Source: a bacterium (GTDB taxonomy: Bacteria; Krumholzibacteriota; Krumholzibacteriia; LZORAL124-64-63). From it: a stretch of DNA of 64,000 nucleotides. Of this stretch, positions 20,631 to 28,767 are shown piece by piece (position 1 is the first letter of the stretch; each line of letters opens with the position of its first letter). The notes below the pieces were generated by a model. That model ran no database searches. It saw only the letters and a list, made by a program, of their open reading frames with translations, and was not told the DNA's origin. The stretch lies in assembly GCA_031441465.1 (NCBI GenBank), contig JANOEP010000011.1:74557-138556 (forward strand). The letters are read 5' to 3'. The position numbers and the translations under genes are program-made.

Positions 20631-21847
20631 GTTGTGCCGTCGAGATTGTGTCCGGCCGCGCCATCGGTTAGCGCGGCCGGCTCTCGTTTCATCCTCTCAC
20701 ATCGCGTAGCTCAACTCATGCCGCCGCTGCCGCGGCAACACCCGCGTGCTGACCGTGCGCCAGTAGTACTCGGTCCAACGCGCCGGCAACTCGATGCGGC
20801 TCACGAACAACCGACGTTCCAGCAACTCACTCACCGAGAGCCGCCTGTCGAACATCCCGCGCGCCTGCGCCGGCGTCGGGCTCCCGCGCTCCTTCTCCCG
20901 CCTGCCCTTCATGTAGTTCCGCCACACCAGGAACACCGCCAATCGCTCCGCGCTCGACTGCCGGCGCTTCGACCACGCGATCGTCTCGCGCTTGTGGTTC
21001 GCGCTGCTGTGGCGGATCAACAGGTCCAGCAAGTTGAACGGGAACAACGGGTTGCCCGCATCCCGCCGCTCCCGGCTCGACGTCACTAGGTGGGTCGATT
21101 CGCAAGGCAACCCCTTCAGGACCCGCGGGTAGATCTGGTGCTCGTCACTCAAGACGGTCACCCGCCGTTGCCCGCCGGTGACCACCTCCAGCAGATGCTT
21201 CACGTCCTTGAACACGGCCTTGGAGTCCGGCCGGCCAAGGCGGGCTTCCAGCCGCTGGCGCTTGCGCTTCTGCGCCTTGGTCATGCGGCCGCTGCGGCGG
21301 ACCTCGCTTTCGGTGAAGTAGATCATGAAGTCGGTGTCCGTCTCTACGGCCAGGTGGTGGTGGAAGGGCCAGTACTGGGAATGCTCGAAAGAGACGAAGC
21401 CGTCGATGGCGAACTGGTCGGCCGGCTTGGCGGACTGCATGCGTTGGGCGTGGTAGAGCAGGCAGTGGCGGCCGAGTCGGCCGAGTTGGCGGTCGATGGT
21501 CGAGGGCGCGACGAGCAGGTCCCTGGCGATCTGTCGGTTGGCCATGCAGCCGGTGGTCTTGGTCAGCAGTTGTGGGAGGATGTCGGGTCGTTTGAGCCAG
21601 TAGGAGGTGGCGAAGGTCTGGGAGCTGAAGGAACGGCGGCAATGGAGGCAGAGGAACCGCTGGATACGGTTTGGGCTGAGGTGTCTACGGTAGTAGCCGA
21701 TGCGTTTGAAGCGCCAGCCGGCGATCAACTGCTTGTGGTAGCAGCAGTTGGGGTTGGGGCAGTGGGGTGGAATGAATCTGGTGCCGATGGTGCGCATGTC
21801 CGGCCCGAGGCATCAAGCGGGCCGGACACATTTTCGACGGCACAACT
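20630..21847 (-). mobile_element. IS1/IS1595-related insertion sequence, copy 1 (1218 bp)
   Basis: 28-bp terminal inverted repeats AGTTGTGCCGTCGA(G/A)A(T/A)TGTGTCCGGCC (26/28 match); paralogous to 56161..57378; no flanking duplication. Confidence 0.88.
20697..21797 (-). CDS. Transposase (Zn ribbon, HTH, DD-N catalytic domain)
   Basis: [52 protein letters not shown]. Confidence 0.85.
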   Translation of the reverse strand: MRTIGTRFIPPHCPNPNCCYHKQLIAGWRFKRIGYYRRHLSPNRIQRFLCLHCRRSFSSQTFATSYWLKRPDILPQLLTKTTGCMANRQIARDLLVAPSTIDRQLGRLGRHCLLYHAQRMQSAKPADQFAIDGFVSFEHSQYWPFHHHLAVETDTDFMIYFTESEVRRSGRMTKAQKRKRQRLEARLGRPDSKAVFKDVKHLLEVVTGGQRRVTVLSDEHQIYPRVLKGLPCESTHLVTSSRERRDAGNPLFPFNLLDLLIRHSSANHKRETIAWSKRRQSSAERLAVFLVWRNYMKGRREKERGSPTPAQARGMFDRRLSVSELLERRLFVSRIELPARWTEYYWRTVSTRVLPRQRRHELSYAM

Positions 21848-23511
21848 CAATATTGGAATCCGCTCTCGCCGATGAATTCCCGCAGCAGCGAGGTCGGCGG
21901 CACCAGCCGCGCGTCGATCGGCAAGTGCAACCCCAGGAACTCCAGCAGCCCCCGCGCCCGCCCGAACGCCGCGTCCTGGGGCGGCACCGCCGCCAGGCGC
22001 GGTTCGGCCCACAGCTTCAGCACGCCCAGCTCGTACGGCAGGCCCGTGTTGAAGAACAGGTCCGCGTTCGACTGCCAGGGGAAGATGTATTTCTTCTCGC
22101 CTTCGCGCACGCTGTTCCAGCGCTGCAGGGTCGTCGCCGCCGGGTAGCCACGGTACTGGGCGTCGCGCACCAGGCGACGGAAGAGCCGCGGCAGGTGGGT
22201 GGGCATGTAGGTCAGGTCGTCGATGTTGGTGGGCGTGAGGGCCGAGACGTAGATGCGCAGCGTGTTGCGGCGCGGCACGTCGGCGGCGAGGCGCGCGTTC
22301 AGGGCGTGGATGCCCTCGACGATCAGGGGCGAGCCGGGCGGCAGGGAGGCGGGGCTCTCTCGCCAGACGCTGCGCCCGGTGTGGAAATCGTAGTGGGGCA
22401 GGCGCATGTCGCGGCCGGCCAGCAGCCCGTCGAGCGTTTCGGCCAGCAGGTCGAGGCGCAGGGCGTCGAGGGTCTCGTAATCGAAGGTGCCGGCGGCGTC
22501 GCGGGGCGTGTGCTCGCGGTCGACGAAGAAATCGTCCAGGGAGAGCGAAAGCGGGCGCAACCCGTGGTCGCGCAGCATCAGGGCGAGCTGCTTGGCGAAG
22601 GTCGTCTTGCCGCTGCTCGACGGGCCGGAGATCAGGACCAGACGGCCGTCGTCGGGCAGGGTGGCGACCCGGTCCGCGGCGCCGACCACCGCCCGCGTGT
22701 GCCGAGCCTCGCAGATCGCGATGAGTTCGCCGGCGCACCCCTCGGCGACCAGGCGGTTGATCGAGCCCAGATCGGGGATGCCCTGGCTCGTGGTCCAGGC
22801 GGTGTGATCCCGCAATGCCTGGAGCAGCTTGGGTTGCTGCGCGAAGGGTTGGACCGAATCCGGAGCGCCGGCCAGGTTGGGCATCAGCACGAAGCCGGGC
22901 GGCTCGGGCAGCAGGGCGAAGGCGCCCGCGAGGGCCGTCGAAGGCAGGTGCAGGCCCTGCAGCAGCAGCCGGCTGCCCTCGGGGCGGCAGAAGACCGCGG
23001 TGCCGACCGGGACGTAACGCGCCGCTTCGAGCGTGTGGCGGCGCGCCGAGTCGCGCAGCGCCCGCTGCAGGGCGCGGGGACCGTACAGCACGGGTTTCAG
23101 TTCCCGGTCGGCCGCGATGATCGCCCGCATGCGCGCCTCGAGCGCGGCGAGTTCGTCGGGCTGCAGGGGAGCGCCGCGGCGCAGCTCGCAGTACATCCCA
23201 TCGCCGTAGGAGAAGTCCACGACGATCGCGTGTTCGGGATGCAGCTCCTCGCAGGCCATCGCCATGACCGTCACCAGCGTCCGCTGGACCGTGGAGTGGG
23301 ATTTGGGATGGCTGCGGCGCATCAAGCCCACCGTCTCGCCGCCCCACAGCGGTTCGTTCAGGCAGGTGCGCTGGCCGTTGACCACGCCCAGGACGGCCGG
23401 GTCGGCGCCGCCGTCGAGTTCGTGGATGGCGAGCACCTCCAGCAGAGGGGTGCCGGGTACGATCTCGAACGGACGGCCTTCGATCCGGACCGTCGCGCTG
23501 CCGTTGGCCAT
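21847..23511 (-). CDS. Uridine/nucleoside kinase with N-terminal ThrRS-like domains
   Basis: GPSSSGKTT, LSLDDFF, IVEGIHALN, RRLVRD..RG, SLLREFIG. Confidence 0.87.
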   Translation of the reverse strand: MANGSATVRIEGRPFEIVPGTPLLEVLAIHELDGGADPAVLGVVNGQRTCLNEPLWGGETVGLMRRSHPKSHSTVQRTLVTVMAMACEELHPEHAIVVDFSYGDGMYCELRRGAPLQPDELAALEARMRAIIAADRELKPVLYGPRALQRALRDSARRHTLEAARYVPVGTAVFCRPEGSRLLLQGLHLPSTALAGAFALLPEPPGFVLMPNLAGAPDSVQPFAQQPKLLQALRDHTAWTTSQGIPDLGSINRLVAEGCAGELIAICEARHTRAVVGAADRVATLPDDGRLVLISGPSSSGKTTFAKQLALMLRDHGLRPLSLSLDDFFVDREHTPRDAAGTFDYETLDALRLDLLAETLDGLLAGRDMRLPHYDFHTGRSVWRESPASLPPGSPLIVEGIHALNARLAADVPRRNTLRIYVSALTPTNIDDLTYMPTHLPRLFRRLVRDAQYRGYPAATTLQRWNSVREGEKKYIFPWQSNADLFFNTGLPYELGVLKLWAEPRLAAVPPQDAAFGRARGLLEFLGLHLPIDARLVPPTSLLREFIGESGFQY

Positions 23512-23682
23512 GGTCGTCTCCTTGCCCGATGCGAGGGCGGCCTGATGGTAGGACCAGCGCGACGGCTTGTCCATCCCGGCGCCGGGCAGGGGAAAGCTCC
23601 GGTTGTACGGAGCCGGGTCGCCGTCTATACTGCTGCCCGCAAGAGGTCGCCACGAGACGATGCGAGACAAAGGGAGTGCACC

Positions 23683-24708
23683 ATGTCCGTGAAGCTGGGA
23701 ATCATGGGGTTCGGTCGGCTGGGCCGGAACATGTTCCGGATCGCCCACGACGTTCCCGACATCACCTTCGCCGCGGTCAGCGACGTGGCCGGCGTCGAGA
23801 CGCTGGCTTACCTGCTGAAGTACACCACGGTCGAAGGGCCCTTCAAGGGCGAGCTGCGCCAGAAGGGACACTACCTGGTCACCAAGCACCAGAACACCCG
23901 TGTGGTGCACGGCTCGCGTCCGGGCGACGTCCCCTGGGATGTGCTGGGCGTCGACATCGTGATCGAGGCCACCGGCATGTTCCGCACCCGCGCCGAGCTG
24001 CAGAAGCACCTCGACTCCGGGGCCAAGGGGGTCATCCTCTCGACGCCGCCGGTGGGTGCGATCGACCGCATGATCGTCAACGGGGTCAACGACGACCAGC
24101 TGCAGCCGGGCGACCGCATCGTCTCCTGCGGCAGCAGCTCGTGCCACGCCCTGGCCGTGATCATGAAGGTCCTGCACGAGAAGATCGGCGTGAAGCGCGC
24201 GACGATGACCACCGTCCACGCCTACACCAGCGACCAGCAGCTCAGCGACAACGCTCGCGGCGGCCTGCGCTGGAGCCGCTCGGCGGCCGAGAACATCATC
24301 CCGAACAGCAGCTGGGCGGCCGGCGCGGTCATGGACCTGATCCCCGAGCTGCGGGGCAAGCTGTCGGGCATGGCCCTGAACGTCCCGGTGTCCGCCGGCT
24401 CGAACCTCGACCTGGTCATCGAGCTGAACAAGCCGCTGTCGGCGGTGGAGTTCAACGCCGTGCTGGCCGAGGCGGCCGCCGGCCCCTACAAGGGCCTGAT
24501 CGGCTACACCGACGAACCCATCGTCTCCAGCGACGTGATCGGCAACTCCTGCTCGGCCGTCGTGGATTCGCAGGCCACCCTGTCGCTGGGCAACGGCCTG
24601 GTGAAGTGCATCGTCTGGTACGACAACGGCTGGGCCTACGCCTACCGCATGCTCGAGACCGCCCGCAAGCTGGCGGGCCTGATCCGGTCCCAGGAGGTCG
24701 CGTCATGA
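23683..24708 (+). CDS. GAPDH-like protein lacking the catalytic Cys (probable pseudoenzyme)
   Basis: GFGRLG, IEATG, TTVHAYT and WYDN are present, but IVSCGSSSCHALA replaces IVSNASCTTNCLA. Confidence 0.88.
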   Translation: MSVKLGIMGFGRLGRNMFRIAHDVPDITFAAVSDVAGVETLAYLLKYTTVEGPFKGELRQKGHYLVTKHQNTRVVHGSRPGDVPWDVLGVDIVIEATGMFRTRAELQKHLDSGAKGVILSTPPVGAIDRMIVNGVNDDQLQPGDRIVSCGSSSCHALAVIMKVLHEKIGVKRATMTTVHAYTSDQQLSDNARGGLRWSRSAAENIIPNSSWAAGAVMDLIPELRGKLSGMALNVPVSAGSNLDLVIELNKPLSAVEFNAVLAEAAAGPYKGLIGYTDEPIVSSDVIGNSCSAVVDSQATLSLGNGLVKCIVWYDNGWAYAYRMLETARKLAGLIRSQEVAS

Positions 24709-25706
24709 GAATCGCCATCAACGGATTCGGGCGCATCGGGCGCGCGGTCTTTCGCCTGCTCAACAGCATGCCCGAGGTCGAGGTCGTGGCCATCAACGAC
24801 CTGGCCGACCCCGCGGCGCTGGCCTACCTGCTGCGCCACGACACGGTCATGGGGCCCTTCCAGGGCGTCGCCCAAATGGACGGGGACCTGATGGTCACCA
24901 GCAGCCAGCGCGTGAAGATGACCCAGGTGCCCGACCCGAAGCAGCTGCCCTGGCGCGAACTGGGCATCGACTACGTGGTCGAGGCCACCGGCCGCTTCCG
25001 CAAGCGGGCCGAGATCGCCCAGCACATCGAGGCGGGGGCGAGGAAGGTCCTGCTGACGGTGCCCTCGAAGGACGAGATCGACGCGACCATCGTCCTGGGC
25101 GTCAACGACGAGGAGCTCAAGCCCGAACACCAGATCGTCTCGAACGCCTCCTGCACGACCAACTGCCTGGCGCCCCTGGCCTACGTGCTGGACAAGGAGT
25201 TCGGCATCGAGTACGGGCTGATGACCACCGTCCACGCCTACACCAACGACCAGCGCCTGGCCGACGTGCCGCACAGCGACTGGCGGCGGTCCCGCGCCGC
25301 GGCCGAGAACACCATCCCGACCACCACCGGCGCCGCCCGCGCCGTCGGCAAGGTCCTGCCCAAGCTCAAGGGGAAGCTCGACGGTCTGGCCATGCGCGTG
25401 CCGGTGCCCGACGGCTCGGTCGTCGACCTGGTGACGATCATGTCGCGCGACGTGACCGCGGCCCAGGTTTGCGACGCCGTGCGGTCCCACGCCGAGAGCG
25501 CCCGCTTCCGCAACATCCTGCGCTACGCCGAGGAACCCCTGGTCTCGAGCGACATCGTGGGCGACCCGCACTCGTCGATCTTCGACGCGGAGTACACCTC
25601 GGTGATCGGCGGCAACATGCTCAAGACCCTCAGCTGGTACAACAACGAGTGGGGCTACTCCAACCGCGTGTTCGACCTGCTGAAGCTGATGGAAAAGATC
25701 GGCTGA
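24705..25706 (+). CDS. gap: Glyceraldehyde-3-phosphate dehydrogenase, type I
   Basis: INGFGRIGR, SNASCTTNCLAP, TTVHAYT, IPTTTGAA, AMRVP; ATGA overlap with the upstream paralogue. Confidence 0.96.
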   Translation: MRIAINGFGRIGRAVFRLLNSMPEVEVVAINDLADPAALAYLLRHDTVMGPFQGVAQMDGDLMVTSSQRVKMTQVPDPKQLPWRELGIDYVVEATGRFRKRAEIAQHIEAGARKVLLTVPSKDEIDATIVLGVNDEELKPEHQIVSNASCTTNCLAPLAYVLDKEFGIEYGLMTTVHAYTNDQRLADVPHSDWRRSRAAAENTIPTTTGAARAVGKVLPKLKGKLDGLAMRVPVPDGSVVDLVTIMSRDVTAAQVCDAVRSHAESARFRNILRYAEEPLVSSDIVGDPHSSIFDAEYTSVIGGNMLKTLSWYNNEWGYSNRVFDLLKLMEKIG

Positions 25707-25740
25707 CCGGCGCCACCCGCGCGGCCCGACGATCCGGCAG

Positions 25741-25776
25741 ACGAAGACCCCGGCCCGCCGCGGCCGGGGTCTTCGT
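25741..25776 (+). terminator. Probable intrinsic terminator after gap
   Basis: 15-bp perfect stem ACGAAGACCCCGGCC / GGCCGGGGTCTTCGT. Confidence 0.7.
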
Positions 25777-25967: not shown

Positions 25968-26651
25968 ATGCGCCTGCTCGCGATCGCCGCCCTTGCCTTG
26001 GCTTTCTGTGGGACGGCCGCCGCCGAGCGTGCGGCTCCCCTGCCGACCCCCCTGGTCGCACCGCCGACCCTGGCCGTCACGGACTGCCTGACCGGCAACG
26101 TCACGGCGGCGGCGACCTACTCCGGTTGGTGGGGCGGCAACGAGTCCTACGCCCGCCTGTTGCCCGCCGCGGCCCCCGGCTGCAACTGCAACGTGGGCCT
26201 CTCGGTGACCACGGCCCACATGCTGCTGGTCCTGGACGCCGGCACAGACATCACCGTCCAGGCGCGCCTGCTCACGGCCGCCGGCACGCCCGCCTGCCGC
26301 ACGCCCGGCACGACGCTAGCGATGTCGTCGCCGCGCCGCATCCGCGGTATCACGAGTCCGGGCGTCTACGACGTCGCCGTGCCCTGCGATTTCGTCTGCG
26401 CCGAGTCGGGCCAGGACTACTTCCTGGTCGTCGACTTCGTCTCGGGCGTCGCGCCGGGTCTGGATCTCGTCGGCGGCGGCACGGGACACGACTGCGCGAC
26501 CTGGAACGACTGGGGCGCCGGCTGGATCGACCTGGTCGGGTCCATGGGCTTCCTCAACGACCTCACGATCTGGGCGGATCTGGACTGCTGCTACCAGGCG
26601 ATCCCCAACGCGTCCAGCACCTGGGGCGGGATCAAGGCCATCTACCGCTAG
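25968..26651 (+). CDS. Secreted Cys-rich hypothetical protein with C-terminal STWGGIKAIYR motif
   Basis: Signal peptide, GGGAG RBS, multiple Cys, terminal motif. Confidence 0.8.
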   Translation: MRLLAIAALALAFCGTAAAERAAPLPTPLVAPPTLAVTDCLTGNVTAAATYSGWWGGNESYARLLPAAAPGCNCNVGLSVTTAHMLLVLDAGTDITVQARLLTAAGTPACRTPGTTLAMSSPRRIRGITSPGVYDVAVPCDFVCAESGQDYFLVVDFVSGVAPGLDLVGGGTGHDCATWNDWGAGWIDLVGSMGFLNDLTIWADLDCCYQAIPNASSTWGGIKAIYR

Positions 26652-26748: not shown

Positions 26749-28767
26749 ATGACACGCTCCACGCGATGCATCCGCCCGTTCACGGGTGTCGCCGGCTCGA
26801 TCGCCCTGCTGGCCGTCTTGCTGACCTCCCTGCCGGCGCCCGCCGTCGCCGGCACCGTCGCGCCCGATCCGACCGCCCATCGGCGCCAGGAAGCAGCGAC
26901 CAAGGCCCGTCTGGCCGCCGCCGCGACCCGCGCCGATGCGCAGAGGACCGCCGGTCAGGACCTGTACGATGTCCTGCACTACGACCTGGACCTGACGCTG
27001 GCGCCCGCGTCGCACCTGCTGACCGGGCAGGTCGCGACCACCGCCCGCATCGTGGGCTCGCCCCTTTCCACCCTGGACCTGGACCTGAAGTCGACGATGG
27101 TGGTGACCGCCGCGACGGCCGGCGGCGCGCCGACCACCTGGACCCGCATCGGCGACGTGCTGACCGTGGCGTTGGATCGTGCCTACGTCCCGGGCGAAGT
27201 CGTCACCGTGTCGGTCGCCTACCGGGGCAATCCCGCCGGCAGCTACTTCGGCTGGAGCAGCGTGGGCGGCCAGCCCATGATCTGGACGCTGAGCGAGCCC
27301 TACGGTTCCCGGGACTGGTGGCCGTGCAAGGACCTGAACACCGACAAGGCCGACTCGGTGGCCGTGCGCGTGACCGTGCCCGACGGGCTGATCGTGGCTT
27401 CCAACGGGCTGCTGGCATCGGAAGTCGACAACGGCGCGACCCGCACCTTCCAGTGGCGCACCGGTTACCCCATCGTGCCTTACCTGGTCTCGCTGGCGAT
27501 CTATCCCTACACGCGGTTCTCCCACTGGTACACGCCGCTGGCGGGCGGCGACCCCATGGAAGTGCAGTACTTCGTGTACCCGAGCCACTACGATGCGGTC
27601 CAGGCGAATTACGCCAAGACCGTGCCGATGATCACGGTCTTCGCCCAGGCGTTCGGGGAGTACCCCTTCGTGCAGGAAAAGTACGGGCACGCGGAATTCG
27701 TCTGGGGCGGCGGCATGGAGCACCAGACGCTCACCAGCCTCGGCGGCTACGGCGAGGACCTGATCTCCCACGAGCTGGCGCACCAGTGGTGGGGCGACAT
27801 GATCACCTGCGCCGACTTCCAGCACATCTGGCTCAACGAAGGGTTCGCCACCTGGTGCGAGGCCTACTGGCGGGAACAGACGGCGGGCGTCGCCACCTAC
27901 CGCGCCTACATGGACGCCGCCGCCTACATGGGCCCCGGCACCATCTTCGTCGAGGACCCGAGCGACTTCTGGGGCATCTTCGACGGCAACCTGAGCTACA
28001 ACAAGGGCTCGTGGGTCGTGCACATGCTGCGCGGGGTGCTCGGCGACGAGGACTTCTTCGCCGGCCTGGCGGCCTACCGCGACCAGTACGCCTACGGCAG
28101 CGCCACCACGGAACAATTCCGCGACGTCATGGAGCAGGTCTCGGGCCGCGACCTGGACGCGTTCTTCCAGCAGTGGATCTACGGGGAGTACTTCCCCTTC
28201 TATTACTACGACTGGGAGACGACCGCCCACGCGGACGGCCTCGTGCTGAACCTGGCCGTGACCCAGGCGCAGGCCAACACCGGTCTGTTCGCGATGCCGC
28301 TGCCGGTGCGCGTGACCACCACGGCCGGTGTCGTGGACACCGTCGTCTGGAACGACGCCGCGCTGCAGTCCTACCGGATCGCGGTGCCCGGCGCGGTGAC
28401 CGGCATCGCTCTGGACCCCGACGGCTGGATCCTGTGCGAGAAGGCGGCTGTCCCGCTCATGGGGACCGCGGCGCCGCAGGTCCCGGTCCCTGGGACGCCC
28501 CGATTGACCTGCGCCCCGAACCCGTTCAATCCCGAGACCGAGGTCGTGGTCTCCACCGCGTCCGCGGGTCGCGTGGACCTCTCCGTGCACGACGCCGCCG
28601 GCCGCCTGGTCGGAGTGCTGTGCGCCGGCGACCTGCCCGCCGGCGAGCACCGCTTTCGTTGGCGGGGTCGCGACGAGGCGGGCCGCGCCGTCGCGTCCGG
28701 CGCCTATTACCTGCGCCTGCGCACGCCGGCGGGCGACGTGTTGCGGCCCGTGGCGTTGGTGCGTTGA
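26749..28767 (+). CDS. Secreted M1 aminopeptidase with C-terminal FlgD-Ig/T9SS-like domain
   Basis: GGMEH, HELAHQWWGD..NEGFA; tail PNPFNP..DAAGRLV..W.GRD..G..VASGAY. Confidence 0.92.
   Translation: MTRSTRCIRPFTGVAGSIALLAVLLTSLPAPAVAGTVAPDPTAHRRQEAATKARLAAAATRADAQRTAGQDLYDVLHYDLDLTLAPASHLLTGQVATTARIVGSPLSTLDLDLKSTMVVTAATAGGAPTTWTRIGDVLTVALDRAYVPGEVVTVSVAYRGNPAGSYFGWSSVGGQPMIWTLSEPYGSRDWWPCKDLNTDKADSVAVRVTVPDGLIVASNGLLASEVDNGATRTFQWRTGYPIVPYLVSLAIYPYTRFSHWYTPLAGGDPMEVQYFVYPSHYDAVQANYAKTVPMITVFAQAFGEYPFVQEKYGHAEFVWGGGMEHQTLTSLGGYGEDLISHELAHQWWGDMITCADFQHIWLNEGFATWCEAYWREQTAGVATYRAYMDAAAYMGPGTIFVEDPSDFWGIFDGNLSYNKGSWVVHMLRGVLGDEDFFAGLAAYRDQYAYGSATTEQFRDVMEQVSGRDLDAFFQQWIYGEYFPFYYYDWETTAHADGLVLNLAVTQAQANTGLFAMPLPVRVTTTAGVVDTVVWNDAALQSYRIAVPGAVTGIALDPDGWILCEKAAVPLMGTAAPQVPVPGTPRLTCAPNPFNPETEVVVSTASAGRVDLSVHDAAGRLVGVLCAGDLPAGEHRFRWRGRDEAGRAVASGAYYLRLRTPAGDVLRPVALVR

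Follow-up and report, generated by a model that had tools for sequence, protein, structure and literature searches.

Two genes of the glyceraldehyde-3-phosphate dehydrogenase (GAPDH) fold lie in tandem in a 64,000-nt stretch of contig JANOEP010000011.1 (assembly GCA_031441465.1), from a bacterium of the Krumholzibacteriota. We refer to this whole stretch as the window, to the upstream gene as gene A (P0001), and to the downstream gene as gene B (P0002). A preliminary description, made from the letters of the window, had reported two full-length genes that overlap by ATGA, and both genes and the overlap were recovered at the same positions (Table 1). The two proteins are 41% identical (132/324, E 3e-96). 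Gene A matches both GAPDH domains, Gp_dh_N (PF00044, 4.2e-26) and Gp_dh_C (PF02800, 3.7e-48), over their full length, and gene B likewise matches them end to end. The type I GAPDH equivalog TIGR01534 (cut-off 367.2) places the two genes on opposite sides of its threshold, with 423.6 bits for B and 320.3 bits for A. The best match to A among solved structures is Thermotoga maritima 1hdg (288 bits), and the best solved matches are canonical GAPDHs; NCBI describes one relative only as a [quoted passage not shown]. Gene B is the sole canonical gap of its own genome (3.49 Mb, 96.8% complete), in which Gp_dh_C has two matches in all, A and B.

Table 1. Features of the gene pair in window coordinates. 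Residue counts are for f1, the window's own family, unless stated otherwise; canonical residue numbers follow standard GAPDH numbering.
Feature	Positions	Strand	Description
Gene A (P0001)	23683..24708	+	341 aa, GAPDH-fold paralogue without catalytic Cys (translation, Pfam, TIGR01534 score)
Gene B (P0002)	24705..25706	+	333 aa, canonical type I GAPDH; SNASCTTNC, IPTTTGAA and AMRVP intact
Shine-Dalgarno-like GGGAG	23672..23676	+	6 nt ahead of gene A ATG; direct sequence reading
GGAGG within gene A 3' end	24693..24697	+	7 nt ahead of gene B ATG; putative ribosome-binding site for coupled translation
ATGA stop/start overlap	24705..24708	+	gene B ATG (24705-24707) over gene A TGA (24706-24708)
Ser152 codon AGC in gene A	24136..24138	+	site of catalytic Cys149 (Cys150 in B); Ser in 27/27 upstream genes
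Trp197 in gene A	24271..24273	+	substrate-phosphate-site Arg195 position; Trp in 27/27 upstream genes, Arg in 27/27 partners
Trp211 in gene A	24313..24315	+	inorganic-phosphate-site Gly209 position; Trp in 27/27 upstream genes, Gly in 27/27 partners; highly variable in other clades
Asn233 in gene A	24379..24381	+	substrate-phosphate-site Arg231 position; Asn in 27/27 upstream genes, and in 68/71 upstream paralogues from many phyla
Gene B S-loop with partnered-type signature	25260..25292	+	Ala186 (25260-25262), Val188 (25266-25268), Ser196 (25290-25292)
Hairpin, perfect 15 bp, 6-nt loop, no T-run	25741..25776	+	35 nt past gene B stop

The active site of gene A and its conservation

Type I GAPDH works through a thioacyl intermediate on Cys149 and binds its substrates through two phosphate sites; this mechanism, and the numbering and roles of the residues involved, are textbook knowledge. 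PMC3728087 outlines the Ps and Pi sites and the S-loop in general terms. Three motifs of B have shifted in A: SNASCTTNC has become SCGSSSCHA, IPTTTGAA has become IPNSSWAA, and AMRVP has become ALNVP. Against canonical numbering, A has Ser for Cys149, Ser for Thr150, and His for Asn152. In the phosphate-site region, it has Trp197 for Arg195, and Asn208, Ser210 and Trp211 for Thr206, Thr208 and Gly209. Finally, Asn233 stands for Arg231 and Gly316 for Glu314. The alignment of A to B agrees with the preliminary description on the Cys-to-Ser change, on IPNSSWAA and ALNVP, and on the retention of GFGRLG and TTVHAYT. It adds two changes to that list, R195W (in LRWSR) and E314G (in WYDNGW). What A retains is also extensive: GFGRLGR, TTVHAYT, Asp34 (Asp32), His179 (His176), Thr182 and Asn315 (Asn313). 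The catalytic base His176 is present in 27/27 f1 copies, and the NAD fingerprint GxGxxG, Asp34 and Asn315 are invariant across the f1 upstream genes. The residues that replace the canonical pocket in f1 (S151-S153, H155, N208, W211, N233 and W197) are themselves invariant or nearly so. With position 149 devoid of a nucleophile and Arg195, Arg231 and Gly209 all replaced, A cannot form the thioacyl intermediate or hold both GAPDH phosphates, and so cannot catalyze the GAPDH reaction. It probably still binds NAD(H).

There is consistent evidence that A has been maintained in this form. A word-indexed search listed 120 close homologues of 62-96% identity, nearly all of 340-341 aa, and the listed 340-341-aa homologues share the start site of gene A. 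The Cys is missing from the catalytic column in 120/120 of them, and all carry Ser, within the motif S-x-G/A-S-S-S-[C/V/S/I]-H-A-L. LRWSR, IPN-x-S-W, ALNVP and WYDNGW are equally constant among these homologues. In an exhaustive search of 50%-identity representatives, the A family is a single cluster (P0065, 570 bits), and the next full-length match scores 329.5 bits. The ratio of nonsynonymous to synonymous substitution rates (dN/dS) was estimated pairwise by the Nei-Gojobori method (NG86) over 29 rows, in which L051 and L052 are duplicate contigs of L027 and L024. In the 17 closest pairs, the ratio is 0.149 for A and 0.146 for B, and in more distant pairs it is 0.27-0.35 for A versus 0.22-0.28 for B; in DNA as GC-rich and codon-biased as this, the dS estimates are probably too low, so the comparison of A with B is the useful part. 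These values indicate that A is maintained under purifying selection, and the earlier proposal that A is maintained rather than decaying has held up, with the Cys missing in every close relative and a dN/dS of ~0.15, the same as that of B. The refuting conditions set in the preliminary description that computation can address, three in all, turned out in favor of its reading. A has the attributes of a pseudoenzyme: it is a paralogue of an active enzyme, its catalytic residues are lost, and it is under purifying selection. Expression of A in a relative is weakly suggested by an RNA-library contig (2041 nt, 80 differences, ~94% identical) that spans 23545-24822, meaning all of A and the junction into B. 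The RNA search found nine runs with small shares of the stretch, four of which were aligned; DNA may contaminate such libraries, and a two-gene contig is not the same as a single transcript. RNA peaks at 25117-25270 and 25579-25732 correspond to conserved GAPDH motifs of other organisms.

One part of the earlier interpretation did not survive. The preliminary description had proposed that two new Cys residues flanking the old site might sense redox state. In a motif tally across the homologue rows (the 25 commonest variants, covering 120/122 rows), the Cys at -3 occurs in only 7 of the rows shown, and at least 18 have V, S or I in place of the Cys at +2. A redox pair of Cys149 and Cys154 (gene A numbering) was rejected, since neither residue is conserved and both are absent from the upstream paralogues of other clades.

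Where does selection act on A? Column entropy in the catalytic segments (residues 140-219) is 0.35-0.61 for A versus 0.06-0.19 for B, so these segments are two to six times more variable in A. The glycine-rich N-terminus is equally conserved in the two genes (0.19 in A and 0.15 in B). Entropy at the interface of a modelled A-B complex is 0.315 in A, versus 0.677 elsewhere in the protein; the corresponding values for B are 0.306 and 0.467. Constraint in A falls mainly on the cofactor fold and on the interface between subunits.

The pair across phyla and the S-loop of the partner gene

The arrangement of A and B is not peculiar to the window. Canonical gap lies directly 3' of A in 29 of 31 related loci from a species-level genome collection, and the remaining two (L009, L021) are truncated where the contig stops. 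A precedes B at every such locus, and no A was seen without B among loci where the contig continues. The junctions in 28 related loci are ATGA in 21-22 cases, TGATG (a 1-nt overlap) in 4, a 22-nt spacer in one (L028), and unclear in one (L029). GGAGG or GGGAGG is present at the junction in all f1-type loci. The two genes are laid out for coupled translation. An internal ribosome-binding site together with a stop/start overlap would be typical of partners made in equimolar amounts. The record titles of these loci vary and are mostly Krumholzibacteriia or Krumholzibacteriota. Public labels are inconsistent for close relatives: five loci that are 95-96% identical to the window (L001-L005) come from metagenome-assembled genomes labelled Gemmatimonas sp., Fibrobacter sp., Latescibacterota, and “bacterium”, and loci that are 74-81% identical are labelled Fibrobacteraceae or Krumholzibacteriia.

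Among 201 genomes sampled from the phylum, with counts made by hand from a table, an A-type gene (at least 66% identity) occurs in 43 of the 87 f1 genomes. Families f2 and f6 have more distant upstream paralogues with an adjoining second gap. Families f3, f4, f5, f7 and f8 have mostly one gap match per genome, and a few rows have two or three. The f2 upstream genes have Thr, Ala or Ser at position 149. The f6 upstream genes keep Cys149, Thr150 and Arg195 and already have Asn231 (Ala or Gly in a few), Tyr or Phe at 209, and Gly314. The upstream family is an old one, and the missing Cys is not its defining feature. In a maximum-likelihood tree (quick search, with the SH-like approximate likelihood ratio test for support), a single canonical clade (support 100) takes in every downstream and solo gene, and all upstream genes fall outside it, together with other Cys-less metagenome representatives. 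Genus code g8 holds the pair in G054 and a solo gap in G040, G070 and G104, with their gap genes in separate clades, which suggests locus replacement or loose genus limits.

The pair also recurs far beyond this phylum. With P0126, a Marinisomatota-type upstream paralogue from among those Cys-less metagenome representatives, as query, an upstream Asn231 gene is followed by canonical gap in 62 of 64 loci, and the other two are cut by contig ends. These 64 loci belong to Marinisomatota, Fidelibacterota, Eisenbacteria, Acidobacteriota and Acidimicrobiia. Four more loci, matched via the canonical gene, also have a Cys-less upstream gene, and 12 Bacillaceae matches are ordinary solo gap. The preliminary description had suggested looking for Cys-less homologues beside an intact gap, and the 29/31 related loci and the recurrence across phyla supply them. 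Across 71 upstream paralogues from many phyla, collected independently in the S-loop motif scan described below, position 149 is occupied by S in 22, by A in 20, by C in 12, by N in 11, and by P, V and I in 2 each, and position 209 holds 13 different residues. Gly314 is present in 49/71. Other positions are nearly fixed: Asn231, the most constant mark of the upstream family, is present in 68/71, Ser148 in 71/71, His176 in 69/71, Arg194 and Arg197 in 71/71 each, G7 and G9 in 71/71 each, and Asp or Glu at 32 in 70/71. Since residue 149 may be S, A, C, N, P, V or I, it does not serve as a conserved nucleophile in the upstream family. This pattern argues for loss of catalysis with retention of the cofactor fold, with the nucleophile lost many times and no replacement selected. 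It also makes it unlikely that A performs different chemistry through its Ser. A number of upstream paralogues keep both Cys149 and His176 while having Asn231 and mostly Gly314 (L043-L050, which are f6, and L165, L168, L172, L175, L184, L187, L189, L193, L195, L196, L216 and L224). These copies may be intermediates, or may still be active on another substrate.

How does A compare with known GAPDH families? It resembles type I GAPDH (GapA, EC 1.2.1.12, TIGR01534) in its two-domain fold and length, and keeps GxGxxG, Asp32, Ser148, His176, Thr179, Asn313, the S-loop, and the tetramer-interface residues. It differs in lacking Cys149, Arg195, Arg231 and Gly209, in having Gly for Glu314, in falling below the family cut-off, and in lying outside the canonical clade. 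Specialized bacterial GAPDH paralogues are already known, namely Epd (TIGR01532/NF010058) and the ArsJ-associated GAPDH (NF033735), and both families keep the catalytic Cys. A has no such Cys and scores below the Epd cut-offs (251.6 vs 530.55 for TIGR01532 and 256 vs 539 for NF010058) and below the ArsJ-associated cut-off (268 vs 450). The flanking genes of the pair are a phosphoribulokinase (PRK)-family gene and an M1 peptidase, with no arsJ among them, although no dedicated search for arsJ was made. By cut-offs and defining residues, A is not a member of TIGR01534, Epd or the ArsJ-type GAPDHs. No description of a Cys-less GAPDH paralogue beside gap was found in a search of full-text literature that leaves out most subscription journals.

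The partner gene carries a mark of its own. Within the phylum, 44 partnered B genes, each with a paralogue upstream, were set against 20 solo gap genes. Four positions separate the two groups, three of them in the S-loop. Position 186 is Ala in 44/44 partnered genes and V, I or L in 19/20 solo genes; position 188 is Val in 44/44 partnered and 0/20 solo genes; and position 196 is Ser in 42/44 partnered genes and Ala in 20/20 solo genes. The fourth, position 68, is Gln in 43/44 partnered and 0/20 solo genes. The same state is seen in other phyla, where Ala186 and Val188 occur in 64/64 partnered B genes and Ser196 in 60/64. In 12 solo Bacillaceae gap genes, positions 186, 188 and 196 are Leu, Leu and Ala. 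Pooled and non-redundant, 108/108 partnered B genes have Ala186 and Val188; among 31 solo genes, Ala186 occurs once and Val188 in none.

The association was also approached from the opposite direction. The S-loop sequence DQRLADVPH was back-translated and used to scan the species-level genome collection, which gave at least 123 stretches, and 80 loci were examined at the DNA level. Two of these are duplicates (the upstream gene also has the motif), one has no GAPDH, four lack upstream DNA, and 73 are assessable. An Asn231-type paralogue lies directly upstream of canonical gap in 73/73, one of them (L221) frameshifted. The loci come from Acidobacteriota, Thermoanaerobaculia, Actinomycetota, Bacteroidota, Lentisphaeria, Desulfobacterales, Bdellovibrionales, Marinisomatota, Eisenbacteria and gammaproteobacterial Halieaceae, and include the cultured carriers Parahaliea aestuarii S2-26 and Pseudohaliea rubra DSM 19751. 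A second informative case is provided by eight f1 solo gap genes that nest inside the partnered clade (support 95 and 96). These loci have no remnant of A, and their gap genes have V or I at 186, M, T or A at 188, and A at 196. The divergent PRK-family gene lies 150-200 nt upstream in 8/8, and the M1 peptidase lies downstream where the locus reaches. The S-loop mark gains weight because of the 73/73 result of the reverse test and because of these eight loci, which lost A.

According to PMC3728087, the S-loop of GAPDH covers the cofactor once it is bound; residue 188 makes contact with the cofactor held by the subunit on the other side of the R axis, and residue 187 influences how much space there is for a 2'-phosphate. 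Residues 187 and 188 in the numbering of that paper are positions 188 and 189 of gene B. A has Asn and Ala where B has Val and Pro.

A probable mixed enzyme and its alternatives

We consider it fairly probable that A is a non-catalytic GAPDH paralogue, or pseudo-GAPDH, that is made together with the sole true GAPDH, B, and most likely assembles with it into a mixed tetramer. A and B would be made from one two-gene, translationally coupled unit, and A would pair with B via the ordinary GAPDH interfaces. The S-loops, which reach into the cofactor pocket of the neighboring subunit, may be the site at which A and B have adapted to each other. Such a tetramer might have only two active sites, and it is possible that A tunes the cofactor affinity, specificity or cooperativity of B, or reports the NAD(H) or redox state. 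The co-variation of the S-loop in B is the one indirect hint that A alters its partner. A stronger version of this reading is tentative, and we would not yet place it on an equal footing with its negation: that in many bacteria GAPDH is obligately a mixed tetramer, with two live subunits and two dead ones, and that the dead subunit, through its S-loop and NAD(H) pocket, acts across the R axis to reprogramme the live one's cofactor binding or cooperativity. The set concerned may include Krumholzibacteriota, Marinisomatota, Acidobacteriota, Actinomycetota, Bacteroidota, Desulfobacterales and cultured Halieaceae. The overall interpretation in the preliminary description can thus be kept in part: a maintained, dead paralogue coupled to canonical gap, probably a subunit of a mixed tetramer (with binding seen in a model only), stands; the redox pair does not.

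Structure prediction is consistent with such a partnership. A two-chain model of B with A scored 0.69, and the best of three controls scored 0.00; the runs agree on at least 99% of contacts, and the partner has a predicted local distance difference test (pLDDT) score of at least 92. The 0.69 mark is reached by 116/157 solved complexes and 2/215 mismatched pairs, counts that are rough because custom alignments were used. The modelled interface consists of the catalytic-domain sheet and the ends of the S-loop. By the verdict of this test, the model supports binding of A to B without showing it. Fixed differences between A and B are not enriched at the modelled interface (~6-7 of 40, on ~43 of 341 residues, counted by hand), which is roughly the number expected by chance. 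An AF2 model of the A monomer has a pLDDT of 88.4 and is confident except for the S-loop (residues 182-204). The S-loop is normally ordered only in the GAPDH tetramer.

Several observations weigh against a mixed tetramer. First, the S-loop mark has only two independent state changes on a tree built without the S-loop columns, which leaves the sign test powerless (p 0.5), and by this count it is largely a clade character. A few upstream paralogues that retain Cys (such as L189 and L196) carry the ADVP S-loop themselves, so the mark may date from the duplicated ancestor. Second, B-type enzymes work alone in relatives that have no A, so A is dispensable for GAPDH activity as such. Third, Asn231 is conserved with a strictness well beyond what a dead pocket would need, which hints at a ligand or a specific structural role. 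Fourth, Cys149 is kept in 12/71 upstream paralogues and in all f6 copies, and some members of the family may still be enzymes. Fifth, the two-chain model may have passed through its likeness to solved GAPDH homotetramers; it would probably pass for any two GAPDH paralogues, and as a prediction it does not tell a mixed tetramer from a homotetramer. Sixth, a search for longer homologues gave five matches and no credible natural A-B fusion, although finding none is weak evidence.

Could A instead be a stand-alone enzyme? It might be an NAD(H)-dependent enzyme with different chemistry, such as direct hydride transfer on a non-phosphorylated substrate with no covalent intermediate, that is co-expressed with gap through linked pathways. 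The conserved NAD-binding motifs, His176 and Ser148, the near-invariance of Asn231, and the retention of Cys149 in some upstream paralogues would all suit this idea, as would the replacement pocket of f1, since a purely dead pocket might drift and this one is invariant or nearly so. Across clades, however, the pocket is not constant, with seven residues at position 149 and thirteen at 209, and the catalytic segments of A are far more variable than those of B. A separate enzyme would also have no reason for a stop/start overlap with gap in so many phyla, and would leave unexplained why the S-loop of B tracks the presence of A. We therefore regard a separate enzyme as unlikely.

Alternatively, A could form a homotetramer of its own and act apart from B as a binding protein that is co-regulated with gap: an NAD(H) sensor, an oxidant decoy, or a moonlighting binder of nucleic acid or protein. 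GAPDH-fold proteins are known for moonlighting, the conserved interface suits a homotetramer as well as it suits a mixed tetramer, and B functions without A in relatives. This alternative sits poorly with the translational coupling and internal ribosome-binding site, which would be expected of equimolar partners, and it does not account for the change in the S-loop of B after the loss of A or for the 73/73 reverse association. We consider it distinctly improbable. The remaining explanation, recent inactivation of a duplicated gap or a mistake in sequencing or assembly, is negligible: nothing was found in its favor, and it is ruled out by the same substitutions in 120 Cys-less homologues from independent assemblies and a dN/dS of 0.15 over an intact open reading frame (ORF), with the RNA-library contig of the ~94% identical relative covering the whole of A.

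Two known systems offer partial parallels for a mixed tetramer of A and B. The chloroplast A2B2 GAPDH (GapA/GapB, PDB 2PKQ, PMC3728087) likewise has two paralogous GAPDH subunits in one tetramer, although the mixed assembly of A and B is a modelled one. Residues 187 and 188 in its S-loop influence the cofactor bound by the neighboring subunit. Unlike A, which lacks catalytic residues, both chloroplast subunits are catalytic. In addition, chloroplast GapB has a CP12-like C-terminal tail, whereas A has only about ten extra C-terminal residues, ending in RKLAGLIRSQEVAS, with no Cys. The second parallel is the trypanosomatid S-adenosylmethionine decarboxylase (AdoMetDC) “prozyme” (PMC6221367), likewise a dead paralogue that selection maintains beside its active counterpart; a heteromer that alters activity would be expected for A and B too. 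The prozyme has another fold and belongs to another kingdom, the GAPDH pair is known from sequence and a model, and its active partner B works alone in relatives.

What would a mixed GAPDH mean for these bacteria? Few enzymes have been studied as much as GAPDH, and textbooks present its bacterial form as a homotetramer of identical, active subunits. First, if the mixed-tetramer reading is correct, the GAPDH of central glycolysis in these organisms is encoded by two genes and includes a subunit that is regulatory or structural. On the stronger reading, a core enzyme of glycolysis would exist in a new, regulated form, which Asn231 in the upstream gene and Ala186/Val188 in the downstream gene would identify from sequence. 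Second, annotating both genes as “GAPDH” would overstate the catalytic copy number. The pair can be recognized automatically from its sequence marks, which are Asn231 and Gly314 upstream and Ala186 and Val188 in the partner. Third, dead-paralogue partners, a device known mostly from eukaryotes, would be used in bacterial core metabolism. Finally, the presence of the pair in cultured Parahaliea aestuarii and Pseudohaliea rubra makes these ideas directly testable at the bench.

Surroundings of the pair and minor observations

Two proteins of 673 and 677 aa, each with an A-type unit followed by a B unit, were considered as fusions and rejected. Homology in the first unit stops after residues 237-252, beyond which an Arg/Pro/Gly-rich stretch leads up to the Met of B; each is a single sequence from a single high-GC contig, and both are best read as frameshift read-throughs. 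Frameshifts affect several public assemblies or gene calls of the pair (L172, L221, P0272, P0273 and P0274), and some give false proteins of ~675 aa. Two giant proteins, P0123 (2089 aa) and P0138 (1455 aa), were rejected as A-type, since every unit has Cys and Arg231, and are unrelated. P0123 has four tandem GAPDH-like units, and P0138 has two, fused to HEAT-type repeats.

The hairpin 3' of gene B is a possible end of the two-gene transcript; a scan for consensus promoters and terminators called no plus-strand promoter and no terminator, this hairpin included. Upstream of the pair, a divergent 554-aa gene (21847-23511, minus strand) has a phosphoribulokinase/uridine-kinase domain (PF00485, residues 294-488). 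This PRK-family gene keeps its place by gap with or without A, in 16 related loci and the window as well as in the 8/8 f1 solo loci. Beyond it, a 366-aa ORF (20697-21797, minus strand) has a Cys-rich N-terminus and no Pfam match; it has no match in related loci at 1e-10 and may be mobile or strain-specific. Downstream of the pair lie a protein of 227 aa, hydrophobic at its N-terminus and lacking a Pfam match (25968-26651, plus strand), and an M1-family peptidase with a C-terminal FlgD Ig-like domain (26749-28767, plus strand), both of which are conserved 3' of the gap pair in relatives.

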